Made by a program: the position numbers and the translations under genes. A stretch of DNA of 64,000 nucleotides from Candidatus Latescibacterota bacterium (lineage in GTDB: Bacteria; Latescibacterota; UBA2968; GCA-2709665). The notes beneath the pieces are model-generated. The model had not been told where the DNA came from. It made no database searches and saw only the letters and a list, made by a program, of their open reading frames with translations. Of this stretch, positions 4,359 through 41,057 are shown one piece after another. Each line of letters starts with the position of its first letter. Position 1 is the first letter of the stretch. Location: contig CAXXJS010000028.1 in NCBI GenBank assembly GCA_963662665.2, positions 128,001 through 192,000 of the forward strand, given 5' to 3'.

Positions 4359-6698
4359 ATGTTTCGAAATTACCTGATCGTTGCGTATCGCAATCTCATG
4401 CGGCACAAGGTCTACTCCGTGATCAACGTGGTGGGCCTCTCGATCGGAATTGCGTTTTGCATTCTGACGTTCCTGTACGTCCGGCACGAGTGGACGTACG
4501 ATGCATTCCATGAAAACGCGAAGCGGATTTACAGGGTCTACCTCCAGGATCGTACGAGCGCGAGCGGCATGACGCCGGATCCGCTGGGGCCGGCGCTGGA
4601 AGCGGCGTTTCCGGACGTTCGAACCGTCAGATTTGGCTGGGGCGCTTCCTCTGCGAAGTTTCAGGACCGGACCATACGCGGTAGCTTTAACTTTGCCGAT
4701 CCGGCGATTCTGGAAGTGTTCACTTTTCCGCTGCTGAAGGGAGATCCGGTGACCGTGCTGGAAGATCCGTCCTCTCTTGTGATCTCCGACGAGGCAGCTC
4801 GGAAATACTTTGGACATGAAGATCCCATCGGCAAAGTCCTTTCAGTGAAACTTTGGGGGCCACCGGCGGTGGACCGGGATTTCGTAATCACCGGGATTGC
4901 GAAATCCATTCCCAAGAATTCCAGCATCCGATTCGATTTTCTGGCTCCGTTTGCCGCCAGGGGCCAGGCGAGAAGTTGGTCAGTGAGAGCGATCCACACC
5001 TTCGTATTGCTACCGGAAAACCAACGTCCGGCAGAAGTCAAGGGTCGGTTTTCGAAGTTTCTAAAGTCCAGGCGGGGAGAACTGTGGGACGAGTCAATCG
5101 GCCTTCAACCACTTCTTGATATGCATCTCGGACGGGGTATACCGGGCCTCTGGGGAGCAGGCAATCCGGTATTTTCCTATATTCTTCTCGGAATCGCTCT
5201 GCTCGTGTTGGCGAATGCCTGCGTGAACTTCATAACCCTTGCCGTCGGCCGGTCATTCTCCCGCGACCGCGAGATTGCGATGCGAAAAACGGCCGGTGCG
5301 TCTCGGCCGCAGTTGATGATGCAGTTTCTTGGAGAGTCGATGCTATTGAGCGTGATCGCTATGATAGCCGGGGTCGGTCTGGCAGAGCTTCTCCTGCCCG
5401 TTTTCAACGATCTGTTACGAAAAGATCTCGCCCTTGGCGATCAGGCGGACGGAGTGGGGCTGGCGTTTTTATTGGGACTGGCGGCGGCCGTTGGGGTGGC
5501 AGCCGGCGGCTATCCGGCCTTGGTATTGTCCGGGTTTCATCCCATTGCAGTGTGGAATAGACGGCTCAGACTGGGAGCGTCCAGCCTGTTCGGACGGGCG
5601 CTGGTGGTTTTCCAGTTTGCCTTGTCGGTATTCCTGGTTGTTAGCACGTTTCTTATGATACGGCAACTGGAGCACCTGAGGACGAAACCGCTGGGCTTTG
5701 AGAGTGATCACGTCCTGCGAATCCGGGCATGGGACCTTTGGATGCGAGATACAGGCCTGGTCGGGGTGTACCGAAACGAGTTGATACGACACCATACAAT
5801 TCTGGGTGTGACGACAACCAGTCACGCGCTGAGCAACAGGACGAGGTACTCCCACACGGTTGAGCATAAAGGAAATGAAATCGACGTCGGACTCGTGGAT
5901 GTTGGCTACGACTTTCTACGGACTATGGGTGTGTCCCTTGTGGAAGGATCGGACTTCGATCCGCAAAGTACGGGTTCACAGTCTTCGATTCTCGTGAATG
6001 AGGCACTGGTCCGCCACCTGGGCTGGGATCATCCGGTAGTGGGCAGAATGCTGCGAATGGAAGAGCGGGATGTGACGGTAGCCGGCGTGGTAAAGGATTT
6101 CCATGTTCGCTCGCTGCACCACACGGTCCGGCCGGCGGTACTGAGGTTTACCTTGAACGAACATGGCAACGTGCTGGTCAGGATCCGACCGGAAAATATC
6201 TCCGGCACGCTGGCCTTCGTTAAGGAGAAGTGGCTTGAAGTCGCTCCGGACCTTCCGTTTCAGTATTCATTTCTGGACGACGAAGTGGACGGACAATACA
6301 GGAGGGAGGAGCGCTGGAACCGGATTGTCATGTATTCTGCATTGCTCGCGGTTCTGATCGCCTGTCTCGGGGCGTACGGGCTCACGGCCCTCTCCGTTGC
6401 GCGCCGGACCAGGGAGATTGGCATCCGCAAGGTCCTTGGCGCCCGTGGATCGGGAATCGTCTCCCTCTTGTCCAGGGTTTTCGTAAAGCTCGTGGTCATT
6501 GCAAGTCTGATTGCCTGGCCGGTGGCGTACTATGCGTCGCAGCGGTGGTTGCAGGATTTCGCGTATCGGATAGAACCGGGCATCGGCGCGTTTGTATTGG
6601 GTGGGATATTGATGCTGGCGGTCGTGTCGCTGACGGTGAGCGTCCAGGCCATCCGGGCGGCGTGGGCGAATCCGGTGGACGCGCTGCGTACGGAGTGA
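4359..6698 (+). CDS. MacB/FtsX-family ABC transporter permease (paralog 2)
   Basis: 779 aa; same architecture as 1583-3946, ends ANPVDALRTE. Confidence 0.93.
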   Translation: MFRNYLIVAYRNLMRHKVYSVINVVGLSIGIAFCILTFLYVRHEWTYDAFHENAKRIYRVYLQDRTSASGMTPDPLGPALEAAFPDVRTVRFGWGASSAKFQDRTIRGSFNFADPAILEVFTFPLLKGDPVTVLEDPSSLVISDEAARKYFGHEDPIGKVLSVKLWGPPAVDRDFVITGIAKSIPKNSSIRFDFLAPFAARGQARSWSVRAIHTFVLLPENQRPAEVKGRFSKFLKSRRGELWDESIGLQPLLDMHLGRGIPGLWGAGNPVFSYILLGIALLVLANACVNFITLAVGRSFSRDREIAMRKTAGASRPQLMMQFLGESMLLSVIAMIAGVGLAELLLPVFNDLLRKDLALGDQADGVGLAFLLGLAAAVGVAAGGYPALVLSGFHPIAVWNRRLRLGASSLFGRALVVFQFALSVFLVVSTFLMIRQLEHLRTKPLGFESDHVLRIRAWDLWMRDTGLVGVYRNELIRHHTILGVTTTSHALSNRTRYSHTVEHKGNEIDVGLVDVGYDFLRTMGVSLVEGSDFDPQSTGSQSSILVNEALVRHLGWDHPVVGRMLRMEERDVTVAGVVKDFHVRSLHHTVRPAVLRFTLNEHGNVLVRIRPENISGTLAFVKEKWLEVAPDLPFQYSFLDDEVDGQYRREERWNRIVMYSALLAVLIACLGAYGLTALSVARRTREIGIRKVLGARGSGIVSLLSRVFVKLVVIASLIAWPVAYYASQRWLQDFAYRIEPGIGAFVLGGILMLAVVSLTVSVQAIRAAWANPVDALRTE

Positions 6699-28456: not shown

Positions 28457-31174
28457 GTGGACGTAATTAACGTGTTGACGCTGGCAGTCTGCTGCGTGAT
28501 TGCACTGGGCTGGGCGCGGCCCGCTGGGGCGGAGCCAACCCGCCCGGTATATCGCGTCGATGCGTCTTCGGAAAGGGTGAATCGCCTGAAACGATCGGTA
28601 TCCAGGGTGATGTCGATGCCCGAAGCCGACATGGTGGCTCTGGTACCTGACAAAACGGGATTCCGGTTTATGGGCTGCCCGAACTGTGACGAGGGGACGC
28701 AGGAGGGGCAGTTGCGATGGTCGATATCGGATCCGCACCGGGTGAAATGTCGATTTTGCGACATGGTCTTTCCGAACGATCAGTATCCCGAGGATCGGGT
28801 GATGAAGGTGGTGAATCCGGTGGGCGTGGAGGTGGCATATCCCTACTGGGAGGACGCGACCGGTTACAGGTATCTGTTTTCGGCCAGGGGATGGCGTGAG
28901 GCGAGGACGTATTTTTCGAGGATCGCGCAACTGTTCGGTGAGTTGTACCAGATGACAGGTGAGCAACCGTATGCGCGGCGAGCCGCGTTGATTCTGAATG
29001 CGTTCGCCCGGTATTACCCGGGTTTCCTGGTCAGCCGCGACTGGCCGCACCGTCCCAAGGGATTCGCAACGGAGCCGCCATATCCAAATGGCGGCGGGAA
29101 ATGGGGGCGGTGGCGCCACGACGAGATGCCAACGAACCTGGTGTTCGCGTACGATTCGATCTACAACAGCGGCGAGTTGGAGCGGCTCTCGGAAGAGATG
29201 GGGACGGACGTGAAGGCGCGTATCGAGAACGACTTCTTCCGGGGCGCCATTCGACAAGACCAATTTCACGAGACCGATTACGGCAACGCGGGGCCGCGGA
29301 TATACGAAGGATATATTGCGATCGGGCGGGTCCTGGGAGATCCCGGGCTGGTACACGAAGGCGTAAGGCAAAGCCGGGAACTGTTCAGGCGGACGTTCTA
29401 CGAGGACGGGTTCTGGATGGAGGGCAGTGTAGGTTATCATCAGATGACGATGGGGGGAATGAACAGGGTATTCCGTGCCGTTCGGGGGTACAGCGACCCG
29501 CCGGGGTATGTGCATCCGGAGAACGGGACGCGCCTGGAAGACCTGGACCTGGAACGGGATATCGCAGTGATTACCCGGGCAAAACGAATCCTGGACATCT
29601 GCCGATATCCTGACGGGCGGCAGATGACAATGCACGACAACTGGGCGCACTTCAGGAACCTGCGGGTACCCGATCGCTCGGTCTCGACGTTGCTGGCCGG
29701 CGTTGGGCACGCGTGGCTCGGGCAGGGAAAGGTTGACGAACAGGTACAGCTGCATCTGCACTTTTCCGGGGGCTACGGGCACCAACACGCGGATAATCTG
29801 AACATGGGTCTTTTCGCCAACGGTCACGAACTGTTGCCGGACGTGGGGTACACGCACACGCGGCACCGGGTCTGGAGTACGAGCACGCTGTGTCACAATA
29901 CGGTCGTGATCGATGAGCGGCGGCAGCATACCGGGGGCCGATCCGGACCGTCAGACGGACGTCTGCTGGCCTTCGAACCGGGGTTTGACGCGGTGAAGTG
30001 GGTGGAAGCGAGTGGAGAGCGGGCGTACCCGGGGCTGGCGAAGGTCTACCGGCGCTCGCTGCTTCTGGTGAACGCCGGGGGTTCGGACGTGTACGCGGTG
30101 GACCTGTTTCGCGTGACCGGTGGCTCGCAGCACGACTGGGCGCTGCACGGGAATGCGGATGCGGACGGGGACGCGACGGTCAGCGTTCCGCTCGCGAATT
30201 ACGGCGAACACATGCTGCCCGGCGTGGACGTCCGAATGCCCACGGGTGAGTCGGACCGGGGGGACGCCGAAGGTCGGAATATCGCCTACGCGTATTTCCA
30301 GAATGTCTCTCGTGGCGCGGCTTCGGACGATCTGAAGATCACGTTCAGCATTGACGATTCACCCGCGGCGGTGCGGACGCATATTCCCGGACAGGCGGGC
30401 GCGGAGGTGTTCGTGGGGGATGCGATGTCGTTTCGACGAGCGGAGGAGAACGATGCGCTCCAGGACCGGATTCGGATGCCGATCTTCCTTCTTCGCCGGA
30501 AGGGAACGTCGCCGCTCTCGAGCCGGTTCATCGCGGTACACGAACCGTTCTCAGGATCGCCATTCATAGAAGACGTGCGTCTGGAAACGCTGGATGGAGA
30601 CGCGGTGGGGATCGCGGTGAGCCATCACGGCGTTGTCGATCATATCGTGTATCGGGGAGGACCGGGAGACAACGCCATATCCATCGGAGACCTGTCGCTG
30701 AATGGCGAAGTCGGATTCGTGAGGGAGCGGGACGGCCGTCCGGAAATGATGGGTCTGTGGGGCGGTACGCTGCTGAAGTGGGATCAGATCGTACTCGAAG
30801 GCAGCGGCGCCTATGAGGGCGAAGTGACAGGTACCCTGAGGACCGAAGCCGGCGCGCCGCACGATGCACTGATCGTAAGCGGCGAGTTGCCGAAGGGCGA
30901 GGCATTGAAGGGTGCGACCGCGATCGTGACGTTCGGCGACGGATCTACCCGGGGATGCCGGGTGCGAGGGGTCGCGCGCGAAGGAGGGAAGACACACGTG
31001 TTGCTGGAATCCGATCCCGGGTTCGACGTCGACAGCGAAGGCATGCGTCACCTGTTCTTCCCGCATCGCGAGATCCCCGGGACGGTACGTTACCGCCTCA
31101 GAACATCGGCCTTCGTTCACACCGCCGACCGCTCGCTCACCTCAATCGGCGAGGCGAAGTTTTCGGGGAATTGA
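28457..31174 (+). CDS. Heparinase II/III-like secreted lyase
   Basis: Signal peptide, CPNC..CRFC, DGFWMEGSVGYH, GHQHADNL, DVGYTH, HNTVVID. Confidence 0.82.
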   Translation: MDVINVLTLAVCCVIALGWARPAGAEPTRPVYRVDASSERVNRLKRSVSRVMSMPEADMVALVPDKTGFRFMGCPNCDEGTQEGQLRWSISDPHRVKCRFCDMVFPNDQYPEDRVMKVVNPVGVEVAYPYWEDATGYRYLFSARGWREARTYFSRIAQLFGELYQMTGEQPYARRAALILNAFARYYPGFLVSRDWPHRPKGFATEPPYPNGGGKWGRWRHDEMPTNLVFAYDSIYNSGELERLSEEMGTDVKARIENDFFRGAIRQDQFHETDYGNAGPRIYEGYIAIGRVLGDPGLVHEGVRQSRELFRRTFYEDGFWMEGSVGYHQMTMGGMNRVFRAVRGYSDPPGYVHPENGTRLEDLDLERDIAVITRAKRILDICRYPDGRQMTMHDNWAHFRNLRVPDRSVSTLLAGVGHAWLGQGKVDEQVQLHLHFSGGYGHQHADNLNMGLFANGHELLPDVGYTHTRHRVWSTSTLCHNTVVIDERRQHTGGRSGPSDGRLLAFEPGFDAVKWVEASGERAYPGLAKVYRRSLLLVNAGGSDVYAVDLFRVTGGSQHDWALHGNADADGDATVSVPLANYGEHMLPGVDVRMPTGESDRGDAEGRNIAYAYFQNVSRGAASDDLKITFSIDDSPAAVRTHIPGQAGAEVFVGDAMSFRRAEENDALQDRIRMPIFLLRRKGTSPLSSRFIAVHEPFSGSPFIEDVRLETLDGDAVGIAVSHHGVVDHIVYRGGPGDNAISIGDLSLNGEVGFVRERDGRPEMMGLWGGTLLKWDQIVLEGSGAYEGEVTGTLRTEAGAPHDALIVSGELPKGEALKGATAIVTFGDGSTRGCRVRGVAREGGKTHVLLESDPGFDVDSEGMRHLFFPHREIPGTVRYRLRTSAFVHTADRSLTSIGEAKFSGN

Positions 31175-31297
31175 GGTGTAAAACACAACGCGACAACAGG
31201 ATGACGCGCACCCTCACCAGCTCATCATAACTCTTCTTGGACAGCACCCGGTAGCCCTGATTATGCGGGACATGCTGATCGTTTAAGCAGGATTATA

Positions 31298-31313
31298 CTG
31301 TACTAAAGTACAG
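31298..31313. promoter_or_regulatory. Perfect 7-2-7 inverted repeat, candidate NarL-family operator
   Basis: CTGTACT-AA-AGTACAG about 115 bp upstream of the SDR start; the operon ends with a NarL-type regulator. Confidence 0.55.
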
Positions 31314-31324
31314 GATTCAAACAC

Positions 31325-31352
31325 GCCCTCCGTTCGATGCGGAGGGCTTTTT
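31325..31352 (+). terminator. Hairpin with U-tract
   Basis: GCCCTCCG..CGGAGGGC followed by TTTTT. Confidence 0.6.
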
Positions 31353-31429
31353 ATATGGGTAAATTTCAAGCACGACAAGAGAAGGGCGGATCATCACGGT
31401 TGGCGTTTCAAAATCAGAGGAGGTTGACT

Positions 31430-32131
31430 ATGTCGAAGCGAACGGCACTGATTACAGGCGCATCTCGGGGATTGGGATTTGCACTCGCGCGTGAACTCGC
31501 ACGCCGGGGATGGCGATTGGTCATAAACGCAAGAGATTCGGAGGCACTGGAAGCCGCACGGGAAGAACTGGCAAAATGGACGGACGTTATCGCCGTTCCG
31601 GGAGATGTCACGGAGGCCGAACATCGTCTGGAGCTTTCTTGGGCCGCGCAAGGAGCCGGAGGGCTGGATGCCGTGATCAACAATGCCGGCATGCTTGGCC
31701 CGAGTCCACAGCCTGAATTGCTGGATTATCCACCCGACGTCCTGGAAGACGTGTATCGCGCCAATGTAGTTGCGCCTCTGGGTGTGCTGCAGGCGGTTCA
31801 ACAGGCGCTGAAGCCTGGCGCATGCGTGATCAACGTGACAAGCGACGCAGCCCGCGAGGCGTACGAGGGCTGGGGCGGATACGGTTCTTCAAAAGCGGCG
31901 CTTGAACAGCTTTCAAACGTGCTCGCCGCAGAACGTCCGGACTTGCGCGTGTACCGGGTGGATCCGGGCGATATGCGGACCCGGATGCATCAGGAGGCAT
32001 TTCCCGGAGAGGATATCAGCGACCGCCCGTTGCCTGAGACGAGCGTGGGGGGATTTATGGAACTGATGGAAGGTTCGTACGAGAGCGGGCGTTACGTAGC
32101 GCGGGAGTCATTCATTGCGACAGATAGCTGA
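31430..32131 (+). CDS. Short-chain dehydrogenase/reductase
   Basis: TGASRGLG, NNAG, YGSSK, VDPGDMRT; GGAGG RBS. Confidence 0.93.
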   Translation: MSKRTALITGASRGLGFALARELARRGWRLVINARDSEALEAAREELAKWTDVIAVPGDVTEAEHRLELSWAAQGAGGLDAVINNAGMLGPSPQPELLDYPPDVLEDVYRANVVAPLGVLQAVQQALKPGACVINVTSDAAREAYEGWGGYGSSKAALEQLSNVLAAERPDLRVYRVDPGDMRTRMHQEAFPGEDISDRPLPETSVGGFMELMEGSYESGRYVARESFIATDS

Positions 32132-32151
32132 TTCTGTATAGGGGGTTCTAC

Positions 32152-33258
32152 ATGTCCAATCCAATGCCGAGTACCGTATCACCCATTACTATAGTGGACT
32201 CACGGCTTGATTCTCTGGTCTTTGATCTGCCCTCGCGTCTTGAAGCAGGCGAGCCCCCGGAGGTACGTGGATTCGATCGAGACGAAGTCCGGTTGATGGT
32301 CTCGCGGCAAAGCGATGACTCAATCGAACACGTCGCTTTTCGGGATCTGCCCGGCGTGCTTCATGCGGGTGACGTGGTGGTGATCAATACCAGCGGTACC
32401 CGCAAAGCGTCGTTGCCTGTTTCCCGGTCCGACGGTCTGGAATTGAGGCTGCATCTGTCAACACGATTGCCGGCCGAAACGTGGGCTGTTGAAGTGCGCA
32501 CATCGGACGCCAAGGGGCCTTTCTTTCGGGCAAGTCCGGGCGAGGTGTTGGCGTTGCCCGGTGGCGGATCGGCGCATCTGCACGCGCCCTACAGGCCTGA
32601 ACACCGCGCTGATCCTGACGCTGACGTTCGTTTATGGATGGCCACGTTGAAATTACCCTGCGGCGTTAACACTTACCTGGACGTTTACGGCGCGCCCATT
32701 CGGTATGGATACGTGCGGGATAACTGGCCGATTGAGTACTATCAGAACGTATATGCGACAGAGACAGGGAGCGCTGAAATGCCATCGGCCGGGCGCGCAT
32801 TCACACCCCGGGTCATCACGAATCTGGTTGCAGAGGGCGTTCAGATTGCGCCGCTGATCCTGCACACCGGTGTGGCGAGTCTTGAATCCGATGAACCGCC
32901 GTACGAAGAATATTACCGTGTTCCGGAACCAACTGCACGCGTCATCAACAGCGCGCGCGAGAATTCTGGGCGGATCATCGCCGTTGGCACCACGGTAGTC
33001 CGGGCGCTTGAGACCGTTGCCGAAGAAGCGGGGTGGGTCTACCCGGGTCAAGGGTGGACAGACCTGGTGATTTCGCCGGAGCGGCCGATGCGGGTTGTAG
33101 ACGGCCTGTTGACCGGCTTGCACGAACCGCGCGCCACACATCTGGCGATGTTGCAGGCATTGACCGGTCCGGATCATCTACGTGCGACCTATGAAGAGGC
33201 ACTCAGCGAGGGATATCTGTGGCATGAATTCGGCGATCTGCAATTGATTTTGCCCTGA
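32152..33258 (+). CDS. Divergent QueA-like SAM:tRNA ribosyltransferase-isomerase family protein
   Basis: RDEVRLMV, GDVVVINTS, YQNVYA, GSAEMPSAGRAFT, LHTG, AVGTTVVRALET, TGLHEP, WHEFGD. Confidence 0.85.
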   Translation: MSNPMPSTVSPITIVDSRLDSLVFDLPSRLEAGEPPEVRGFDRDEVRLMVSRQSDDSIEHVAFRDLPGVLHAGDVVVINTSGTRKASLPVSRSDGLELRLHLSTRLPAETWAVEVRTSDAKGPFFRASPGEVLALPGGGSAHLHAPYRPEHRADPDADVRLWMATLKLPCGVNTYLDVYGAPIRYGYVRDNWPIEYYQNVYATETGSAEMPSAGRAFTPRVITNLVAEGVQIAPLILHTGVASLESDEPPYEEYYRVPEPTARVINSARENSGRIIAVGTTVVRALETVAEEAGWVYPGQGWTDLVISPERPMRVVDGLLTGLHEPRATHLAMLQALTGPDHLRATYEEALSEGYLWHEFGDLQLILP

Positions 33259-33301
33259 ACAGGAGATATATTGGCAGAGCCTACTCGCAGAAAGAATCCA
33301 A

Positions 33302-34480
33302 ATGCTATCGAAAGAAACCATGCCGACTTCGACCGACCAACTCGGACAGCGCAATCGCGAACTTACCGTTCTGAACGAGATTGCCCATGCATTGAACCAG
33401 TCTGTTGATCTCGATCAGGCCCTGGAAACAACGCTTCGAAAGGTTGCCGCACTACTCGGCCTGAACACAAGCTGGATATGGCTCATGAACGAAGAGACCG
33501 GCGAGCCGTACCTTGCGGCTGAACACAACCTGCCGCCCGCGCTGCAGGACAATCCGGTCAGAATGGGTGGGTGGTGCTATTGTCTGGACACCTACCGGCG
33601 AGGAGATTTGAAGGGGGCGGCGAACGTGAACGTTGTGACGTGCAGCCGTCTGAAGGGGCTTGTTGAAGGGACGGACGGTTTACGGTACCACGCGAGCATT
33701 CCGCTGTACGCGAAGGGGAAGAGAGTGGGAGTGATGAACGTGGCGAGCGGCGCGTGGCGCGAACTTTCGTCCGAGGACTTGCGCCTGCTCAACACCGTGG
33801 GCGATCTGACCGGCATCGCAATCGAACGGGCGCGTTTGTATGAACAGAGCGTAGAAACCGGGGTCGCGAACGAGCGTGTCCGACTCGCACGGGAAATTCA
33901 CGATACCCTCGGTCAGAATCTGGCGGCGATTCTGATGCGGCTGGAAACGCTGGATGCGTTGATTGACGACGATGCGGACCGAAAAAAGCTGTCCGGGATT
34001 CTGGGCGGGGCAATGGCGATTGCTCGCGACAATCTCGAGGAGGCGCGCCGTGCGGTACTGGACCTGCGGGCCGCGCCGCTCGAAAACCGTTCATTGCAAG
34101 GGGCATTGGAAGATTTGGGGAAGGCGATCGGATCCGAGGCCGGTGTGGACGTTCGTATAGAATGTGTTGGCGGACGTCCTCTATCAGCCAGCGTCGAATC
34201 CGGTTTGTATCGCATGGCGCAGGAGGCGATGAACAACGTCGTTGAACACGCGGGCGCAGAGAAGGCCCACGTCAAACTGACGTCGACGCCCGATTACGTT
34301 GCGCTTGTCGTTGAAGACGATGGTTGCGGATTCGACACGACAAACACCTTCCAGGGTCGTCACGGGCTCGCAGGAATGAGTGAACGGGCGCGCTTGTTGA
34401 GGGGATCAATGGTCATTGACAGCGCGCCGGGGCGCGGCACGCGATTGGAAATTCGTGTTCCTGCGCAGGAGAGGACATGA
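33302..34480 (+). CDS. Cytoplasmic GAF sensor histidine kinase (HisKA_3, AirS/YhcS-like)
   Basis: GAF with CYC-x19-CSRL; ERVRLAREIHD H-box; QEAMNN, DDGCGF, GLAGMSER; no TM segment. Confidence 0.9.
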   Translation: MLSKETMPTSTDQLGQRNRELTVLNEIAHALNQSVDLDQALETTLRKVAALLGLNTSWIWLMNEETGEPYLAAEHNLPPALQDNPVRMGGWCYCLDTYRRGDLKGAANVNVVTCSRLKGLVEGTDGLRYHASIPLYAKGKRVGVMNVASGAWRELSSEDLRLLNTVGDLTGIAIERARLYEQSVETGVANERVRLAREIHDTLGQNLAAILMRLETLDALIDDDADRKKLSGILGGAMAIARDNLEEARRAVLDLRAAPLENRSLQGALEDLGKAIGSEAGVDVRIECVGGRPLSASVESGLYRMAQEAMNNVVEHAGAEKAHVKLTSTPDYVALVVEDDGCGFDTTNTFQGRHGLAGMSERARLLRGSMVIDSAPGRGTRLEIRVPAQERT

Positions 34481-35097
34481 GCGCGCCGATTCGCATTCTG
34501 ATTGTAGACGACCATCCCGTCATCCGGGATGGCCTCACTGCGATGTTGAATACACAGACCGATTTTGAGGTCGTAGGTGAAGCCGGCGACGGCGAGGACG
34601 CGATGCGGAAAATCGCCGATTGGGATCCCGACGTGATCTTGCTGGACCTGGAGATGCCGGGCGTGGATGGGATTGAGACCCTTCAACGCTTGAAGGAAAT
34701 GGACGTTCGGGCGCGGGTGATTGTTTTCACGGTCTTTGACACGGACGAACGCATTGTCTCAGCCATGCGCGCGGGTGCAATGGGCTATCTGCTCAAGGGC
34801 GCGCCAAGAGAGGACGTGTTTCGCGCTGTCAGGGTGGTCAATGAAGGAGGCTCGTTACTGGAACCGGCGGTTGCTTCGAGGTTTCTGGACAGCATCAACG
34901 ATCCGGATGCGTTGACAGCGCGGCAAAGGGAAGTGCTGAAGCTGATTGCAACGGGTCTGTTAAACAAGGAAATCGCCGACCGGCTCTACATTTCCGAACG
35001 CACCGTCAAGTTCCACGTGAGCGAAATCCTCGCCAAACTCGGCGCGGGAAACCGTACCGAAGCAGTAGCAATCGCGACGGAGAAGGGATTGATATAA
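34477..35097 (+). CDS. NarL/LuxR-family response regulator
   Basis: IVDDH, LLDLEMP, GYLLK, LTARQREVL..NKEIA..TVKFHV; ATGA overlap with the kinase. Confidence 0.95.
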   Translation: MSAPIRILIVDDHPVIRDGLTAMLNTQTDFEVVGEAGDGEDAMRKIADWDPDVILLDLEMPGVDGIETLQRLKEMDVRARVIVFTVFDTDERIVSAMRAGAMGYLLKGAPREDVFRAVRVVNEGGSLLEPAVASRFLDSINDPDALTARQREVLKLIATGLLNKEIADRLYISERTVKFHVSEILAKLGAGNRTEAVAIATEKGLI

Positions 35098-35172
35098 ACA
35101 ACCGGTATTCAGCGCCCTGCGATCCGCATCGAAGGGTTGTCTTTCGGGAGCTGATATCCTCACGGATAGTAC

Positions 35173-35445
35173 TTGCTGGCCGACATGTACCAGATGTTCG
35201 TATACGGTAAGAAATACGGCTGCAGGAAGGTCGCGCTGGTCTATCCGAAGACGGACGAGTTTAATAAATCGTTACAATACGAATTCGACAAACAACTGTT
35301 ATTGACCTGTTTTCCGTTTGATGTGACCAAACCGGAGTGTGGCGTTAGAAAGATAATCGAAAATCTGAAAAACCGAGTTTGGTCGAATAAAGCGGAGAAA
35401 GAAAAAAAGAACCAGTGTGTTTCGATTTACGCTACAAGCGGTTGA
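35173..35445 (+). pseudogene. C-terminal fragment of McrC-like restriction endonuclease subunit
   Basis: ADMYQMFVYGKKY...LVYP is the McrC tail motif; the rest of the gene and mcrB are absent. Confidence 0.7.
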
Positions 35446-35544
35446 TTTCTGATGGTAACTTGGTATTCTACACACAGTCTGACCGGAATCTATTTTCACG
35501 GGGTCGGTGACGGTTAATGCTTCCGATTGCATTGGAGATGCTCG

Positions 35545-35832
35545 ATGATCAGAGGCGATAATCCGATTAAGAGATCTGATGATGATGTTATTGGTAGAGC
35601 AGTTGAAGCAAATAAGTTCGCTCGAAATGTACTTGAACTTGATACCAGTGAGGGGGCAGTAGTCGGTGTCTTAGGTCCTTGGGGTTCCGGGAAAACTTCC
35701 TTTATAAACCTGGCCAGGGAGGAATTCGAGAAAGCAAGGGTTCCCATTCTCGATTTTAATCCGTGGATGTTCAGCGGTACAACCCAACTCATTCAGGCGT
35801 TTTTTATAGAACTTTCCGCACAACTTAAGCAG
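35545..35832 (+). pseudogene. KAP-family P-loop NTPase, 5' part (IS21-interrupted)
   Basis: DNPI...DVIGR, GPWGSGKTS Walker A, FNPWMFSG; GGAG RBS. Confidence 0.9.
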
Positions 35833-36035
35833 TGTTAGTGATCGGTCATATGGAGCCATTTGGGGATCGCCATAATGGCGCCACGTGAGGATCGCCGTAA
35901 AGGCGCCACGCGAGGATCGCCGTAATAGCGCCATGTGAGGTAACCGGAAAAGGGGTCTCGGGCATTCCGTTCATCGTTGTTTACCTTCTGACGACACAGT
36001 GGATAACTATTCGCACAAGTCAGGAGGGATACAAG

Positions 36036-37610
36036 ATGTCAAACCGGAGGTTCGAGATGCACGAATACCGACACGTGATTGTCTGCATGCGGTTGGGACA
36101 GTCCGACCGCGCGATTGCCGAAGCCGGATTGATGGGTCGCAAGAAAGTGGGTCAACTGCGCCGCCTTGCTGCTCGTCACGGTTTTCTGGACCTTTGCAAA
36201 CCCGTGCCTGAGGAAGCCACGCTTGCGAAAGTGTTGGAGTTGGCTTCGACCCGTGCGGCTGTTTCCCTGGTGCTCCCGTATCGGGAGGAAGTCACCCGCT
36301 GGTGGCGACAGGGCATCCAGGGTACGACGATCCACCAGGCGCTTGTTTGCAAGTACGGATTTTCCGGCAGTTACTCGTCCATCCGCCGTTTTCTGCAGGG
36401 GTTGGAACAGACCCATCCGCGGGTCACGACGGTTCTGGGTTTCTCTCCGGGCGATGTTGCGCAGGTGGACTTTGGCGCCGGTCCACGCATCCAGGACGTG
36501 CATACGGGCCAGGTCTGCTCGACCTGGGTCTTTGTCATGGTCTTGGCCTGGAGTCGTCACCAATACGCGGCGTTCGTCACCGACCAGAAGGTCGCGACGT
36601 GGTTGCTTTGCCACCGCCACGCCTTCGAGTTCTTCGCTGGTGTGCCCAAAAGGGTGATGATCGATAACCCCAAGAGCGCCATCACCCGCGCGTGTTATTA
36701 CGATCCGGGCGTGCAGCGTGCTTACGCCGCCTGCGCCGAAGGCTATGGCTTTCTCATCTCACCGTGTCCCCCACGAGACCCCAAGAAGAAGGGACGCGTC
36801 GAGGCCGGCGTCAAATATGTGAAGAGAAACTTCCTGCCACTACGCGACTTCCGAAGCGTGGCCGACGCGAATGCACAACTTCGAGAATGGGTGCTCGCCA
36901 TCGCCGGCAACCGCATCCACGGCACCACGCAGGAAAAGCCGCTGAACCGCTTTGCGCAAACCGAGCGTCATCTCCTCACGCCTTTGCCCGATATCCCCCC
37001 TGAAGAAGCGTCCTGGACCCCCGTCAAAGTACACGGCGACTGCCACGTGCAGTTCGAAAAGTGCCGCTACAGTGTGCCTTTTAGCCTCGTGCGCCGCGAC
37101 CTCTGGCTGCGGGCAGGACCAACCACGGTCCGGATCTACAAGGATCAACAACTGGTGGCCGCCCATTCCCGTCTGCACAATCCCGGCGCCCGTTCCACTG
37201 TGGATGACCATCTGCCACCCGACGCCAGGGCCTACAAGATGCGAGATCCGCAATGGTGCTTGAAACAGGCCAAACGCATCGGGCCGGCCTGCCGGGAGCT
37301 CATCGAGTGCCTCTTTGCAGACAGGGTCCTCGACAAGCTACGCGCGGCACAAGGGGTCATCAGGATGGAAAAACGCTATGGCCCCGCCCGCCTGGAAGCC
37401 GCCTGCGCCCGCGCATTGGCTTTCGACAGTCCCCTGTATCGCACCGTCAAAACCATCCTGGATCGGGGACTCGACCAGCAGCCCGACACACCAAACACGC
37501 CCGATAAGCTGCCTGACGTCTATAAAGGCGCTGGGCTTTTTTGCAGAGAGACAACCGATCTGTTCCATCACATAGACAACGCTGCCCATTCCAAGGAGAC
37601 ACGGCCATGA
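36036..37610 (+). CDS. istA: IS21 transposase
   Basis: PGDVAQVDFG, IDNPKS, KGRVE DDE motifs, YSVP. Confidence 0.96.
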   Translation: MSNRRFEMHEYRHVIVCMRLGQSDRAIAEAGLMGRKKVGQLRRLAARHGFLDLCKPVPEEATLAKVLELASTRAAVSLVLPYREEVTRWWRQGIQGTTIHQALVCKYGFSGSYSSIRRFLQGLEQTHPRVTTVLGFSPGDVAQVDFGAGPRIQDVHTGQVCSTWVFVMVLAWSRHQYAAFVTDQKVATWLLCHRHAFEFFAGVPKRVMIDNPKSAITRACYYDPGVQRAYAACAEGYGFLISPCPPRDPKKKGRVEAGVKYVKRNFLPLRDFRSVADANAQLREWVLAIAGNRIHGTTQEKPLNRFAQTERHLLTPLPDIPPEEASWTPVKVHGDCHVQFEKCRYSVPFSLVRRDLWLRAGPTTVRIYKDQQLVAAHSRLHNPGARSTVDDHLPPDARAYKMRDPQWCLKQAKRIGPACRELIECLFADRVLDKLRAAQGVIRMEKRYGPARLEAACARALAFDSPLYRTVKTILDRGLDQQPDTPNTPDKLPDVYKGAGLFCRETTDLFHHIDNAAHSKETRP

Positions 37611-38386
37611 ACCCCATGCCTGAGCTGGCGCCCTTGCTCAAACAACTGCGTTTGTCCGGCATCGTCGAATCCCTGCCGACAAGAAACCGCGAGGCCACCG
37701 AAAAACAGTTGTCCTATGCTGAGTTCCTCGCCTTACTCATCCAGGACGAAGTCGCAAGACGCGAACAGAAAAAGTTCGCCCTCAGAGTACGTCGCGCAGG
37801 CTTCAGAAACGAAAAAACCCTCGAAGGCTTTGACTTCTCCTTCAATCCCAAGATCAATCAGACGCAAATCCAGGAACTGGCGTCCTGCCACTTCATCCAC
37901 GAGAAGGTCGCTGTCCTCATCGCCGGACCCTGCGGCACTGGCAAAAGCCACATCGCCCAGGCCTTAGGTCACTGCGCCGTCCGCAACGGCTACGATGTGC
38001 TCTTCTACACACAAACCAAACTGTTGGGACACCTGCACGCCGCCAGAGCCACCCATACCTTCGATCGCCGTTTCCACGCCCTGGCCAAGGTCCCCCTCCT
38101 CGTCATCGATGACTTCGGACTCCGACCCCTTAGCCCGCCGCACGAGGACGACTTCCATGACCTCATCGCCGAACGCTATGAACGCGCTGCCACTATCGTC
38201 ACCTCCAACCTCGACTTCAACGAGTGGGGTAACGCCTTCTCCAATCGACTCCTCGGCGCTGCAACACTCGACCGACTGCGACACGCCGCCTACCGCATCA
38301 TCCTCGACGGTCACAGCTATCGGTCTCCGCGTCCCCTACGTACACCACACAAAATCACCCTTGCAAAGGAGGTCACTAAAACCTAA
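37607..38386 (+). CDS. istB: IS21 helper AAA+ ATPase
   Basis: GPCGTGKSH, LLVIDDFG, TSN, LDRLRH; ATGA overlap with istA. Confidence 0.96.
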   Translation: MNPMPELAPLLKQLRLSGIVESLPTRNREATEKQLSYAEFLALLIQDEVARREQKKFALRVRRAGFRNEKTLEGFDFSFNPKINQTQIQELASCHFIHEKVAVLIAGPCGTGKSHIAQALGHCAVRNGYDVLFYTQTKLLGHLHAARATHTFDRRFHALAKVPLLVIDDFGLRPLSPPHEDDFHDLIAERYERAATIVTSNLDFNEWGNAFSNRLLGAATLDRLRHAAYRIILDGHSYRSPRPLRTPHKITLAKEVTKT

Positions 38387-38483
38387 TTACATGTCCCGTC
38401 TGAGACCCCCCTTTTGACCCTCGCTCACTGGCGCCTTTAAGCCGATCATGGGTGGCGCCTTTACACCGATCATTGACAAGCAG

Positions 38484-40250
38484 CGTACATCGTTTGCCAA
38501 AGTGGCTGAATCTCTTGGGAAATATGGCGATGCATTTGCCGGTATGGGATGGATTCCGTTTGTCGGTACCTGGTTTGAGCGAATACGCGTATTGGCGAAG
38601 ATTACACACAAGATCAGCGAAACTCAGAAAGATGGAGTTCACGCGAGGCGAAGGAGACTCAAAAACCTCCTTAAGAAAGTCGACAAACCCATTTTGGTGG
38701 TACTTGACGACATTGACCGACTTTCGTCTCCTGAAATCCGAGACATATTCAAATTGGTACGGCTAACGGCCAACTTCCCCAATATTATCTATATTTTGGC
38801 ATTTGACCGAACCCGAGTCGAAAACGCGCTTAGCGAAAATGGAATAAGCGGTCGCGCCTACCTGGAAAAAATCCTTCAGGTTGCATATGATTTGCCTGAA
38901 GTACCCGGTAATATACTCATAGAACAGATATCCTGCGCCTTGCAAGACGCTATCGGAAACATCGAGAACGTCAGCCAGGTCGATGAGCAAGTTTGGCCAG
39001 ATGTCTTCATGGATATCATTCGCCCACTCATTCGGAACATGCGAGATGTACGGCGATACGTCGCAACCGTTCACGGCACCGTAAAATCCCTCAACGGGAA
39101 AATTGCGCTTGCCGACCTCTTGGCGCTCGAAGCAATTCGCATTTTCGTTCCAGATGTATTTAGGCTTTTGCACGGTGCCATTGAAGGTCTGACCGGATCC
39201 CAAGAGATCGACTCTCAAACTCCCAAACCTAAATCTTATTTACAGCGGCAAGTCGACGATCTGACTGAAGCAGCGGGTGATCACAGAAATGTAGTCGAGA
39301 ACATGATTGCAAGAATCTTTCCGGCTGCCGGGGATTATGACTCGGGCGATGACCACCGAGCAGAATTGAGGAACGGGTGGCTTAGGAATCGACTCGTCGC
39401 TCATGCGGACATTCTGCGGTTTTACCTGGAACGACTAGAAAGTGACAATCTGCAAGCCTTTGAAAAAGCAGAGGGGCTATGGAAACACATGGCTGATCGC
39501 GAAGCCTTCGATAAATGTCTGCGTTCTCTCCATCCGAAACAACAGCAAGGCGTCGTTGCATCATTCGAGCTGTACGAGGATCAATTCCTACCAGAGTATG
39601 TAGTACCGGGTACGATCGTATTGCTCAACCTCTTGCCGCTTCCCGAACGAGATAATAGTGTGTTTGGTTTTTCTCCGACAATTACTATCACCCGTGTCGT
39701 ACTTCGCCTCCTAAAGTGCCTCGATGACTCAGCTTCGATCGAAAATGCGGTTCGCCTGATTCTACCAGAATTGAGATCGCTGTCTTCGAAACTAGAACTT
39801 ATCAGCATGGTTGGATACCAGGATGGAGTGGGTCATAAGCTGGTAATAGAAAAAACGGCATTGGAATTTGAGAAGGCTTGGCGTGAGGAAGTCAGATCAT
39901 CGTCAGTTGCAGATCTCGCGACTGAGCACAATCTCTTGGGCGTGCTTCTTCGTACGACACGCGCCGCAGGTCCGACGGAATGCCCGCTCAATATCGAGAA
40001 CTCTCCAGAAATGACGTTGGCCGTACTCAGGGCTGCTAAAGATGAGATCATTGGCCAATATCTCGGAAGTAGGGCGATCCAACGCAAACCGCGATTACAT
40101 TGGAAAGGTCTCATTGAACTGTACGGCGATGAGACGACGATAAAGGAGCGGGTTCAAAGTTTGAAGATCGCGAATCTCGAAGGTTCACGTGATCTTATCG
40201 CACTTGCTGAGAAATATCTAGGCGGATATCGAGATGAAGGATCACGTTAG
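38484..40250 (+). pseudogene. KAP-family P-loop NTPase, 3' part
   Basis: LVVLDDIDRL Walker B, YLEKILQ, RNMRDVRR; joins in frame with the 5' part once the IS and one AGCAG are removed. Confidence 0.9.
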
Positions 40251-40547
40251 TTACCATATGTAAAATGGTTACGATGTGACCAAGATAACTTTCGTCGAAC
40301 AGGCAAACCACAAAAGCCCACACCGTGAATGGCGCGGGCTTTTTTTCGTGAGTGGAAACAGCGGTATTGGTTTTCGTTCAAACTCCGTTTGTGAATATTT
40401 AATGGTAATCGGTAAAGAGTCTGGCTCACGCAAGTCCGCACGACTCCTGGGCATCGACCAAATATAGGATACTGTTATCGGAATGTTCGGGAAACGCATG
40501 ATGTATAAAAACGTGATTACATAGCGTGTCTCTCACTTACATCAACT

Positions 40548-41057
40548 TCAACGAGTACGCCTTGCCCTTCCGTTGCGCCGAATTGCGTCCGCGATAGGGC
40601 CAAGCCGAGACGGCCCCGAAAACATCCCCTCTTCAATAATTCTTCGGATTTCTCCGGGTTCCATCGATGCGATATATTTAAAAACTCTCGGAATGGAACT
40701 TGCTCTAGACTTGGACACAGGTGTGTCAATGCCATAGACCTGGCAAAAATTATCAATATCGCCAAATGTTGGCAGGAAATCTTTCCTTTCGAATTTTGTT
40801 GCAAGTTCAATTGTTACTTCCTCTTTGTCCTTATCAAGTTTCATTTTCTCAACATACTCAGGCGCACTTACCTTTGGCTTCTTTCTGGCAGGTCTTGTCA
40901 AACCGGCGCTTCGAGCCGGCGTTTCCCTACTTTTCGGACTCTTGACATGCAGCTCAGAATTGCGGATTTCCCGTAATGACCTTCCAACTTGCTCGAATCC
41001 AAACTGAAGAACCAACCCACGCAGCGTCTCTTTGAGATTAGAATTAGCATTGGTCAT
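40548..41057 (-). CDS. Hypothetical basic protein downstream of ParA
   Basis: 169 aa from ATG 41057 (GGGGG RBS), 20 bp after the parA stop; no recognised domain. Confidence 0.7.
   Translation of the reverse strand: MTNANSNLKETLRGLVLQFGFEQVGRSLREIRNSELHVKSPKSRETPARSAGLTRPARKKPKVSAPEYVEKMKLDKDKEEVTIELATKFERKDFLPTFGDIDNFCQVYGIDTPVSKSRASSIPRVFKYIASMEPGEIRRIIEEGMFSGPSRLGPIADAIRRNGRARRTR

Follow-up and report, generated by a model that had tools for sequence, protein, structure and literature searches.

What does a relative of the queuosine enzyme QueA do in an operon that carries no other known step of that pathway and is equipped with its own sensor kinase? The question is raised by a 64,000-nucleotide stretch of a Candidatus Latescibacterota bacterium (GenBank assembly GCA_963662665.2, contig CAXXJS010000028.1, positions 128,001 to 192,000; hereafter the window), in which 31430-35097 holds four genes, all on the plus strand, for a short-chain dehydrogenase/reductase (SDR), a QueA-like protein (QueAL), a GAF-HisKA_3 kinase and a NarL-type regulator. 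Comparison with related loci and genomes showed that the conserved two-enzyme unit of QueAL and SDR is distinct from queuosine synthesis, and that the enzymes are tied in this lineage to a putative dedicated two-component system and operator. With moderate confidence, we interpret the locus as a two-component-activated, S-adenosylmethionine (SAM)-dependent pathway that does not act on tRNA. The elements of the locus, in window positions, are as follows.

31298..31313, no strand assigned: operator CTGTAC-TAAA-GTACAG (consensus CTGTMC-N4-GKACAG), a predicted regulator binding site, from sequence conservation.
31325..31352, plus strand: G+C-rich hairpin (stem 31325-31347) followed by a T-run, from a terminator scan.
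31360..31365, plus strand: predicted -10 hexamer TAAATT, 46 nt past the operator end, at a fixed offset in related loci.
31417..31423, plus strand: ribosome-binding site of the SDR gene, GAGGAGG, from sequence, with AGGAGG-like sites at the equivalent place in related loci.
31430..32131, plus strand: classical SDR of 233 amino acids, dedicated partner of QueAL (PF00106, 124 bits; orthologues beside QueAL).
32152..33258, plus strand: QueAL, QueA-like paralog of 368 amino acids (PF02547, 250.7 bits).
33302..34480, plus strand: soluble sensor histidine kinase with GAF (GAF_2), HisKA_3 and HATPase_c domains, from a domain search.
34477..35097, plus strand: NarL/FixJ-type response regulator with receiver and GerE helix-turn-helix (PF00072, 102 bits; PF00196, 76.6 bits).

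The successive intergenic gaps are 20, 43 and -4 nt. Every 19-residue window in all four proteins has a Kyte-Doolittle mean of at most 1.28, so that none contains a membrane-spanning hydrophobic stretch and all four look soluble. Coordinates, gaps and hydropathy agree with an earlier note, made from the sequence alone, that had described four closely spaced, co-oriented genes behind a palindrome, with a soluble GAF kinase among them. The longest open reading frame of the SDR opens at 31337, inside the hairpin; homologues begin at ATG 31430, behind GAGGAGG, which is most likely the start.

QueAL matched the QueA profile over positions 3-322 of 322, a full-length domain, while staying below both NCBIfam QueA equivalog cut-offs (NF001140, 174 versus 324 bits; TIGR00113, 150.8 versus 267.45 bits). 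The same assembly (4.86 Mb, 92% complete) encodes a canonical QueA on contig C10, with a PF02547 score of 437.8 bits versus 250.4 bits for QueAL, as well as tgt in one copy on C37, queC on C20 and C10, and queF on C10. QueAL is therefore not the sole queA of this genome, and the earlier statement that no tgt or other que gene is nearby stands for those searched (canonical queA, tgt, queC and queF), all of which lie outside the window, canonical queA and tgt on other contigs. An alignment of 73 paralogs with six canonical QueA copies from the same genomes revealed that GTT..RALE, G.T, H.P and GD are common to both kinds, whereas the canonical blocks AAPTAGLH, TNFH.P and (F/Y)S.GDAM are replaced by AEMPSAGRAF, TG.HEP and WHEFGD, the replacements being invariant in the paralogs. 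The motif swaps read from the window alone (AAPTAGLHF to EMPSAGRAF, TNFHLP to TGLHEP, and FFSYGD, more generally F(F/Y)S(F/Y)GD, to WHEFGD) were thereby confirmed. Blocks invariant in the paralogs only include PPE.RG, NTS.T, HLST, GSAEMPSA.R.FT, LHTGV.S.E..E.PY.E.YRV, LTG.HEP..HL and YLWHEFGD, and 25 QueAL sequences from six phyla share 93 invariant columns. Moreover, a profile built from 25 paralogs scored 428-647 bits in 37 of 151 Latescibacterota genomes, while full-length canonical matches reached at most 200.6 bits; this gap and the low NCBIfam scores bear out the view of QueAL as a family apart from canonical QueA. The two kinds also differ in charge, with a net charge of -18 and an isoelectric point of 5.0 for the window QueAL (mean net charge of the 73 paralogs, -13) and of +10 and 9.6 for the canonical QueA of the same genome.

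The AlphaFold2 model of QueAL (predicted local distance difference test score, 81.7) contains both QueA domains, including the small beta-barrel. A Foldseek search with this model at E <= 0.001 returned only the QueA structures 1YY3, 1VKY and 1WDI (E values of 1.6e-24 to 4e-23), with TM-scores of 0.52-0.56 when normalised to the query and 0.62-0.69 when normalised to the target, at about 26-30% identity. An ESM Atlas search excluding PF02547 gave no usable match, and a predicted QueAL-SDR complex scored 0.00, which is evidence neither for nor against such a complex. Nine longer proteins of 662-842 amino acids were also seen, three of which carry SDR and QueA domains, two of these with a receiver or an ArsR-type domain; all but one form clusters of a single member, and gene calls that were merged could account for them. 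A fusion of SDR and QueAL suspected from long open frames was rejected, the two matches sitting in different frames in locus L083.

Independence from queuosine was examined across carrier genomes. Among 10 further carriers searched for PF02547 and TGT, eight had canonical queA, QueAL and tgt; the closed 11.3-Mb chromosome of G002 contains QueAL, with canonical queA not found, and G159 has QueAL only, its TGT search being without match. In the order to which G159 belongs, QueAL occurred in 21 of 81 genomes, five of which had no second PF02547 match (the count includes the unpublished G202 and G225; G185 additionally has QueAL in two contig-end pieces). Neither a canonical queA nor a TGT match was found in the QueAL carriers G159, G172, G192 and G233 (four of four searched), and the lack of both queuosine genes in all four paralog-only genomes is the outcome predicted by independence. 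The constant company of tgt, which the earlier note had named as the contrary outcome, is thus not what these four carriers display. In G236 and G228, which have both queA kinds, tgt lies right next to the canonical queA. As a separate observation, G001, G002, G005 and G160 (the genomes of loci L029, L036, L043 and L047) contain a TGT-family match of about 300-311 bits. G001, G005 and G160 also encode a canonical tgt, which scores 492-542 bits, and G002 has several further TGT-family pieces, including an adjacent pair covering both profile halves.

To describe how widely the unit occurs, one genome per species was scanned, which yielded at least 546 relatives, and the best 80 loci were analyzed. 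These loci came from Latescibacterota, Gemmatimonadota, Chloroflexota, Actinomycetota, Armatimonadota and Bacteroidota, the top match being a Latescibacterota protein of 92% identity. The top 120 database matches to QueAL, from Chloroflexota, Actinomycetota and others, were all at least 55% identical (55-92%), and cultivated carriers include Thermogemmatispora. In 74 of the 80 loci, QueAL is directly preceded on its own strand by an SDR orthologue (52-95% identity); among the remaining six, a contig end truncates L078 and L080, and L038, L059, L067 and L069 lack the SDR. The SDR carries the classical TGxxxGxG cofactor motif, NNA and Ser-Tyr-Lys, and T9, G10, G14, G16, N84, N85, A86, S138, Y151 and K155 are invariant in 25 orthologues. 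Solved structures nearest to it include a ketoreductase, xylulose reductase, YciK, 3-oxoacyl-ACP reductases and sepiapterin reductases.

Kinase orthologues (52-95% identity) were found in 27 of the 80 loci and regulator orthologues (55-93%) in 29, adjoining the kinase. The two genes follow the enzymes, as in the window, in L004-L009, L022 and L025; the order is kinase, regulator, box and enzymes in Rubrobacter-type and some Chloroflexota loci, and elsewhere kinase and regulator are upstream of the enzymes or unlinked. Conservation therefore extends across phyla for the gene set and the palindrome, whereas the four-gene order of the window is limited to close relatives. The unit is a self-contained, horizontally mobile module whose two-enzyme core is QueAL with its own SDR. 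A divergent arrangement was seen in a Chloroflexia locus (L061, 2334-6001), where SDR and QueAL stand 3.7 kb apart and a box-like site precedes each of them, with 12 of 12 positions at 1527 for the SDR and 10 of 12 at 5827 for QueAL; an insertion seems to have split the operon, with duplication or retention of the box.

The palindrome ahead of the operon, CTGTACT-AA-AGTACAG, was correctly located at 31298-31313 in the earlier note, but the conserved operator has a 6-4-6 rather than a 7-2-7 form. Exact CTGTAC-N4-GTACAG occurs in 16 related loci of several phyla. Boxes with 10 or more of the 12 positions matching precede the first operon gene in all 29 loci with kinase and/or regulator and in 20 loci without them. 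With the threshold at 9 of 12, 55 of the 80 loci have a site in the 300 nt ahead of the enzyme genes, compared with 120 of 1,600 control windows; these 55 loci scored 12 of 12 in 11 cases, 11 in 21, 10 in 8 and 9 in 15. About one such site per genome is expected by chance, and the strict pattern CTGTMCNNNNGKACAG was found once in the 4.86-Mb assembly, at this place; the significance of the box comes from its conservation at this position in related loci. The half-sites are fixed while the central four bases vary, which points to a protein site of 6-4-6 form rather than an RNA stem, and the reading of the palindrome as an RNA hairpin was rejected on these grounds. In the Latescibacterota loci L010-L020, the box at the equivalent place is mostly degenerate, typically CTGTCC-TAAA-GAACGG. 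L013 (5093-5171) has instead the palindrome CATGTCC-TAAA-GACATGG in place of its relatives' CCTGTCC-TAAA-GAACGGG, with both halves different.

The box also keeps its distance from a predicted promoter. TANNNT lies exactly 46 nt after it in 33 of the 55 loci, while any other offset from 30 to 61 nt occurred in at most seven, and with this spacing the centre of the box falls near -66 relative to the predicted start site. A weaker second half-site (CTGTCC or CCGTCC) follows 7-8 nt after the box in loci of Chloroflexota and Rubrobacter, near -40. From a box near -66 combined with a half-site near -40, we infer a layout that would suit an activator. The putative operator is thus a conserved inverted repeat with fixed spacing to the -10, travelling together with a NarL-type regulator. 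Three other candidates in this region were discarded: a minus-strand promoter across the palindrome (TTGAAT-17-TATAAT) is unconserved in L005-L009; a 19-codon minus-strand open reading frame at about 31215-31275 lacks its ATG in L005, as judged by eye; and an Rfam search of 30800-35600 at E <= 1 for a known riboswitch in the leader was without match.

Between operator and -10 lies the hairpin GCCCTCCGT-TCGAT-GCGGAGGGC with its T-run. All nine pairs are kept in 19 Latescibacterota-type sequences, one of them as U-A in 11 and as C-G in 8. Two further pairs have G-U variants, both of which occur in L009, and these G-U pairs point to selection on the plus-strand RNA. Since the predicted start site is downstream of it, the hairpin is tentatively read as a terminator of the upstream gene and not as a leader attenuator. 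It is probably the intrinsic terminator of the co-oriented heparinase-like gene, packed into the -35 region.

The kinase and regulator have the features of a two-component pair, namely an H-box REIHD, a receiver LLDLEMP and genes overlapping by 4 nt, and their NCBIfam NarL, NarX and NarQ scores are all below the cut-offs. In the GAF domain, C92, C94, C114 and H130 are invariant in all 25 kinase orthologues and sit in the nearly invariant stretch GWCYCLDTYRRGDLKGAANVNVVTCSRL...LRYHASIPLY. The spacing C92-x-C94-x19-C114 noted earlier was confirmed, and so was the lack of the fourth cysteine of AirS, no Cys being present upstream of C92; H130 may possibly serve as a fourth ligand.

The kinase also keeps company with QueAL at the level of genomes, both being found in 34 of the 151 Latescibacterota genomes and neither in 109. 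In genus g4, where distances of 53 kb to megabases separate the kinase locus from that of QueAL, the kinase is present in all 15 genomes with QueAL, while among the five g4 genomes without QueAL, four have no kinase and one has a 166-residue fragment. In other phyla, carriers with a box but no linked kinase encode the orthologous kinase-regulator pair elsewhere (51% identity in G160, G001 and G005, and 72% in G004).

Further genes accompany the enzymes in some lineages. A glyoxalase domain of the vicinal oxygen chelate (VOC) family is fused to the SDR or placed between SDR and QueAL in 10 of the 80 loci. The VOC family includes epoxide-opening enzymes, which would fit an epoxide product of the QueA type, although this is only a lead. 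Other genes inside the predicted operons encode a "Luciferase domain" protein (PF17648, in 8), a DUF6069 membrane protein (5), a PNPOx-like protein (3 or 4) and an MBL hydrolase (2), and in some Rubrobacter-type loci such genes are placed between box and SDR. Among 108 flanking open reading frames of loci without kinase or regulator, there was no dominant neighbor and no family with more than five members (HTH_20 in four), and the 25 families listed for them include no MerR/SoxR family. Directly after QueAL in L082 and L083 lies a SufR-like regulator, whose TIGR02702 score of 106-113 bits does not reach the cut-off of 178.8.

The surroundings of the operon were also recorded. Upstream lie a Kelch-repeat protein gene (27379-28359) and a gene for a 969-amino-acid heparinase II/III-like protein (28265-31174), a pair that adjoins the operon in the seven closest loci (L004-L009 and L022) and not in other lineages. 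About 30 nt (CCCTCACCAGCTCATCATAACTCTTCT) at about 31206-31235, some 70-100 nt upstream of the operator, are conserved in L004-L008 and L022 without a conserved open reading frame; in L007, L008 and L022, the same spacer has gained GAGCTTGTCGAAGGGTCG-like units repeated over 150-350 nt, apparently a small repeat element. Directly after the regulator gene, G+C content falls from about 58% to 46-49% (35100-41000). In this low-G+C island, 35173-35445 holds a short McrBC-like tail fragment, and a gene for a KAP-family P-loop NTPase is interrupted, between 35527-35838 and 38448-40250, by an IS21-type element (istA, 36036-37610; istB, 37541-38386) with a G+C content of 57-62%.

Considering these features together, the system may work as follows. 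The GAF domain with Cys92, Cys94, Cys114 and His130 probably holds a metal or iron-sulfur (Fe-S) center or a reactive thiol and would report redox or oxidant stress. The phosphorylated regulator would bind CTGTMC-N4-GKACAG near -66, plus the weaker half-site near -40 where present, and activate a promoter whose -35 is poor and whose -10 is TAAATT at 31360-31365, while the hairpin between box and -10 probably blocks read-through from the upstream gene. In the window, kinase and regulator are encoded in the same operon, so that activation would raise their own synthesis too. QueAL would use SAM in sulfonium-ylide chemistry of the QueA type, with a nucleophile that is not preQ1-tRNA but most likely some small molecule; the SDR would then reduce or oxidise a carbonyl or hydroxyl of the ribose-derived product, on which the glyoxalase/VOC-fold domain of some lineages may act as well. 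The earlier note had proposed a redox- or oxygen-regulated SAM-ribosyl transfer plus reduction pathway on a substrate that may not be preQ1-tRNA; of this proposal, the parts on a separate QueA-like protein that is not the sole queA are supported, as is conservation of the gene set across phyla, with the operator form and the gene order corrected, while the redox or oxygen sensing and the ribosyl transfer with reduction stay putative. In its fullest version, which we offer tentatively and hold to have less than an even chance, the system would represent the first QueA-type chemistry outside tRNA, converting the SAM ribose into an (epoxy)cyclopentane-diol, free or on a small-molecule amine or thiol, for a redox/oxidant-stress response switched by a new Cys3-His GAF kinase here and by other Fe-S-type regulators elsewhere.

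Several known systems share parts of this design. Soluble GAF kinases paired with a NarL-family regulator are familiar from DosS/DosT-DosR of mycobacteria, in which DosS and DosT sense through a haem in the GAF domain; the conserved residues here are three Cys and a His, and the half-site sequence differs. Sites of NarL have a 7-2-7 form, and DosR/NarL boxes are, like the box here, palindromic, with a ..AC-N4-GT.. core and an activator position. AirSR (YhcSR) resembles the present pair in its CxC-containing Cys cluster in the N-terminal sensor region, HisKA_3 kinase and NarL/LuxR-type partner. In published reports, AirS of Staphylococcus aureus binds [2Fe-2S] via Cys-X7-Cys-X-Cys-X17-Cys (PMC4601167; PMC8774646), NreB has a three-cysteine [2Fe-2S] cluster (a 2026 paper, PMC13478379), and CSK/Hik2 has a GAF-domain [3Fe-4S] cluster with only one proven Cys ligand (PMC6949291). 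Clusters with fewer Cys ligands have thus been published, which makes a metal or cluster site in the present kinase plausible. Compared by published motif only, AirS has four Cys and the kinase here three (C-x-C-x19-C), with an invariant His 16 residues beyond the last of them; moreover, AirSR is a global regulator, whereas the system here appears dedicated to one operon. With QueA itself (EC 2.4.99.17; PF02547; 1VKY, 1YY3 and 1WDI), QueAL has in common the two-domain fold and the full-length profile match, but it is sub-equivalog, has other invariant residues at three motifs or more, is acidic, is paired with an SDR and occurs in genomes in which tgt was not found. QueA is termed "a unique enzyme" in the available text of a 2022 review on SAM-derived carbocycles, where no relative acting outside tRNA is mentioned (PMC9092360). 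Our literature search, which did not extend to subscription journals, found no paper on a QueA paralog, an SDR-QueAL pair or this two-component system. The QueA family is thus known, while the literature found contains no description of this subfamily or of the partner, operator and sensor that go with it.

Some observations weigh against a two-component-activated pathway outside tRNA. The completeness of G159, G172, G192 and G233 is not given, so that tgt counts there as not found rather than absent. In the Latescibacterota comparison, QueAL was found without the kinase in 3 of the 151 genomes (G068, G126 and G154), and the kinase without QueAL at >=428 bits in five, of which G044 has a 166-residue kinase fragment and G142 a partial QueAL-like piece on the kinase contig; in addition, the two-by-two table overstates the link, because related genomes are not independent. 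The SufR-like regulator beside the enzymes in other lineages makes the kinase one of several switches, and the Cys3-His site of the GAF domain could bind zinc, act as a thiol switch or have a structural role. Two copies of canonical QueA in one Acidimicrobiia genome are acidic too, which makes charge a soft argument. None of the three solved QueA entries found is a ligand-bound form, which leaves an intact SAM site in QueAL putative, and the retention of both QueA domains, the beta-barrel included, means that QueAL may still act on a nucleic acid.

This last point leads to the alternative that QueAL modifies another macromolecule, such as an amine-bearing RNA or DNA base or a protein side chain, and that the SDR tailors the attached ring. 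Sequence conservation across phyla is very high (55-92% identity), as commonly seen in enzymes whose partner is a conserved macromolecule, QueAL keeps the beta-barrel domain, and several carriers have extra TGT-family paralogs; we nevertheless regard this explanation as unlikely, since QueAL is acidic, the 108 flanking open reading frames include no recurring nucleic-acid or transglycosylase gene, G159, G172, G192 and G233 are without any TGT-family match, and the recurrent companions are small-molecule enzymes. Even lower is the probability that QueAL is a stress-time QueA isozyme that makes epoxyqueuosine on preQ1-tRNA only when the two-component system is on, which we rank as the least likely explanation of all. 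The full-length PF02547 match and QueA fold, the GTT..RALE, G.T, H.P and GD blocks in both kinds, and the tgt and preQ1 genes of most carriers, the window genome included, would suit an isozyme; set against them are the four carriers without a tgt or canonical queA match, scores under both curated QueA cut-offs, the exchange of several canonical invariant blocks for other invariant residues, a 28-unit charge shift relative to the QueA of the same genome, and an obligate SDR partner that queuosine synthesis does not need.

Two further explanations concern the operator and the activity of QueAL, and both seem quite improbable to us, to a similar degree. The palindrome may be the site of another regulator, for example a LexA-type repressor, with the two-component system controlling something else: the box fits CTGT-N8-ACAG, the SOS-box pattern of Escherichia coli, and 20 loci have a box of >=10/12 with no kinase or regulator within 6 kb. 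A LexA regulon would comprise several boxes, however, and the occurrence of the strict pattern once in the assembly indicates a dedicated regulator and argues against such a regulon. The box also accompanies the enzyme genes, with kinase and/or regulator in all 29 linked loci; box genomes without a linked kinase (G160, G001, G005 and G004) encode an orthologue elsewhere; the co-occurrence profile of kinase and QueAL points away from LexA; and the box stands upstream of the -10, in an activator position. As to activity, QueAL may have lost catalysis and serve either as a sensor or as an SDR subunit that binds SAM or another ligand, an idea favored by the alteration of several canonical motifs and by the pairing with the SDR (74 of 80 loci). 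Yet the 93 invariant columns include new acidic and His residues at GSAEMPSA, HEP and WHEFGD, and invariant new residues at the very motifs that changed indicate a remodelled active site rather than decay.

In the available text on the enzyme, QueA is regarded as a one-off, with one enzyme, one substrate and the SAM ribose as a carbocycle donor (PMC9092360). The proposed SAM-dependent pathway outside tRNA offers testable handles, namely two small soluble enzymes, a regulator with a 16-bp predicted operator, a predicted promoter and a three-Cys-plus-His sensor domain. That a second subfamily is widespread, comes with a reductase and dedicated switches of its own and occurs in some genomes in which the queuosine pathway was not found implies a new SAM-derived metabolite or adduct, and such a product would concern Chloroflexota, Actinomycetota, Latescibacterota, Gemmatimonadota and others.

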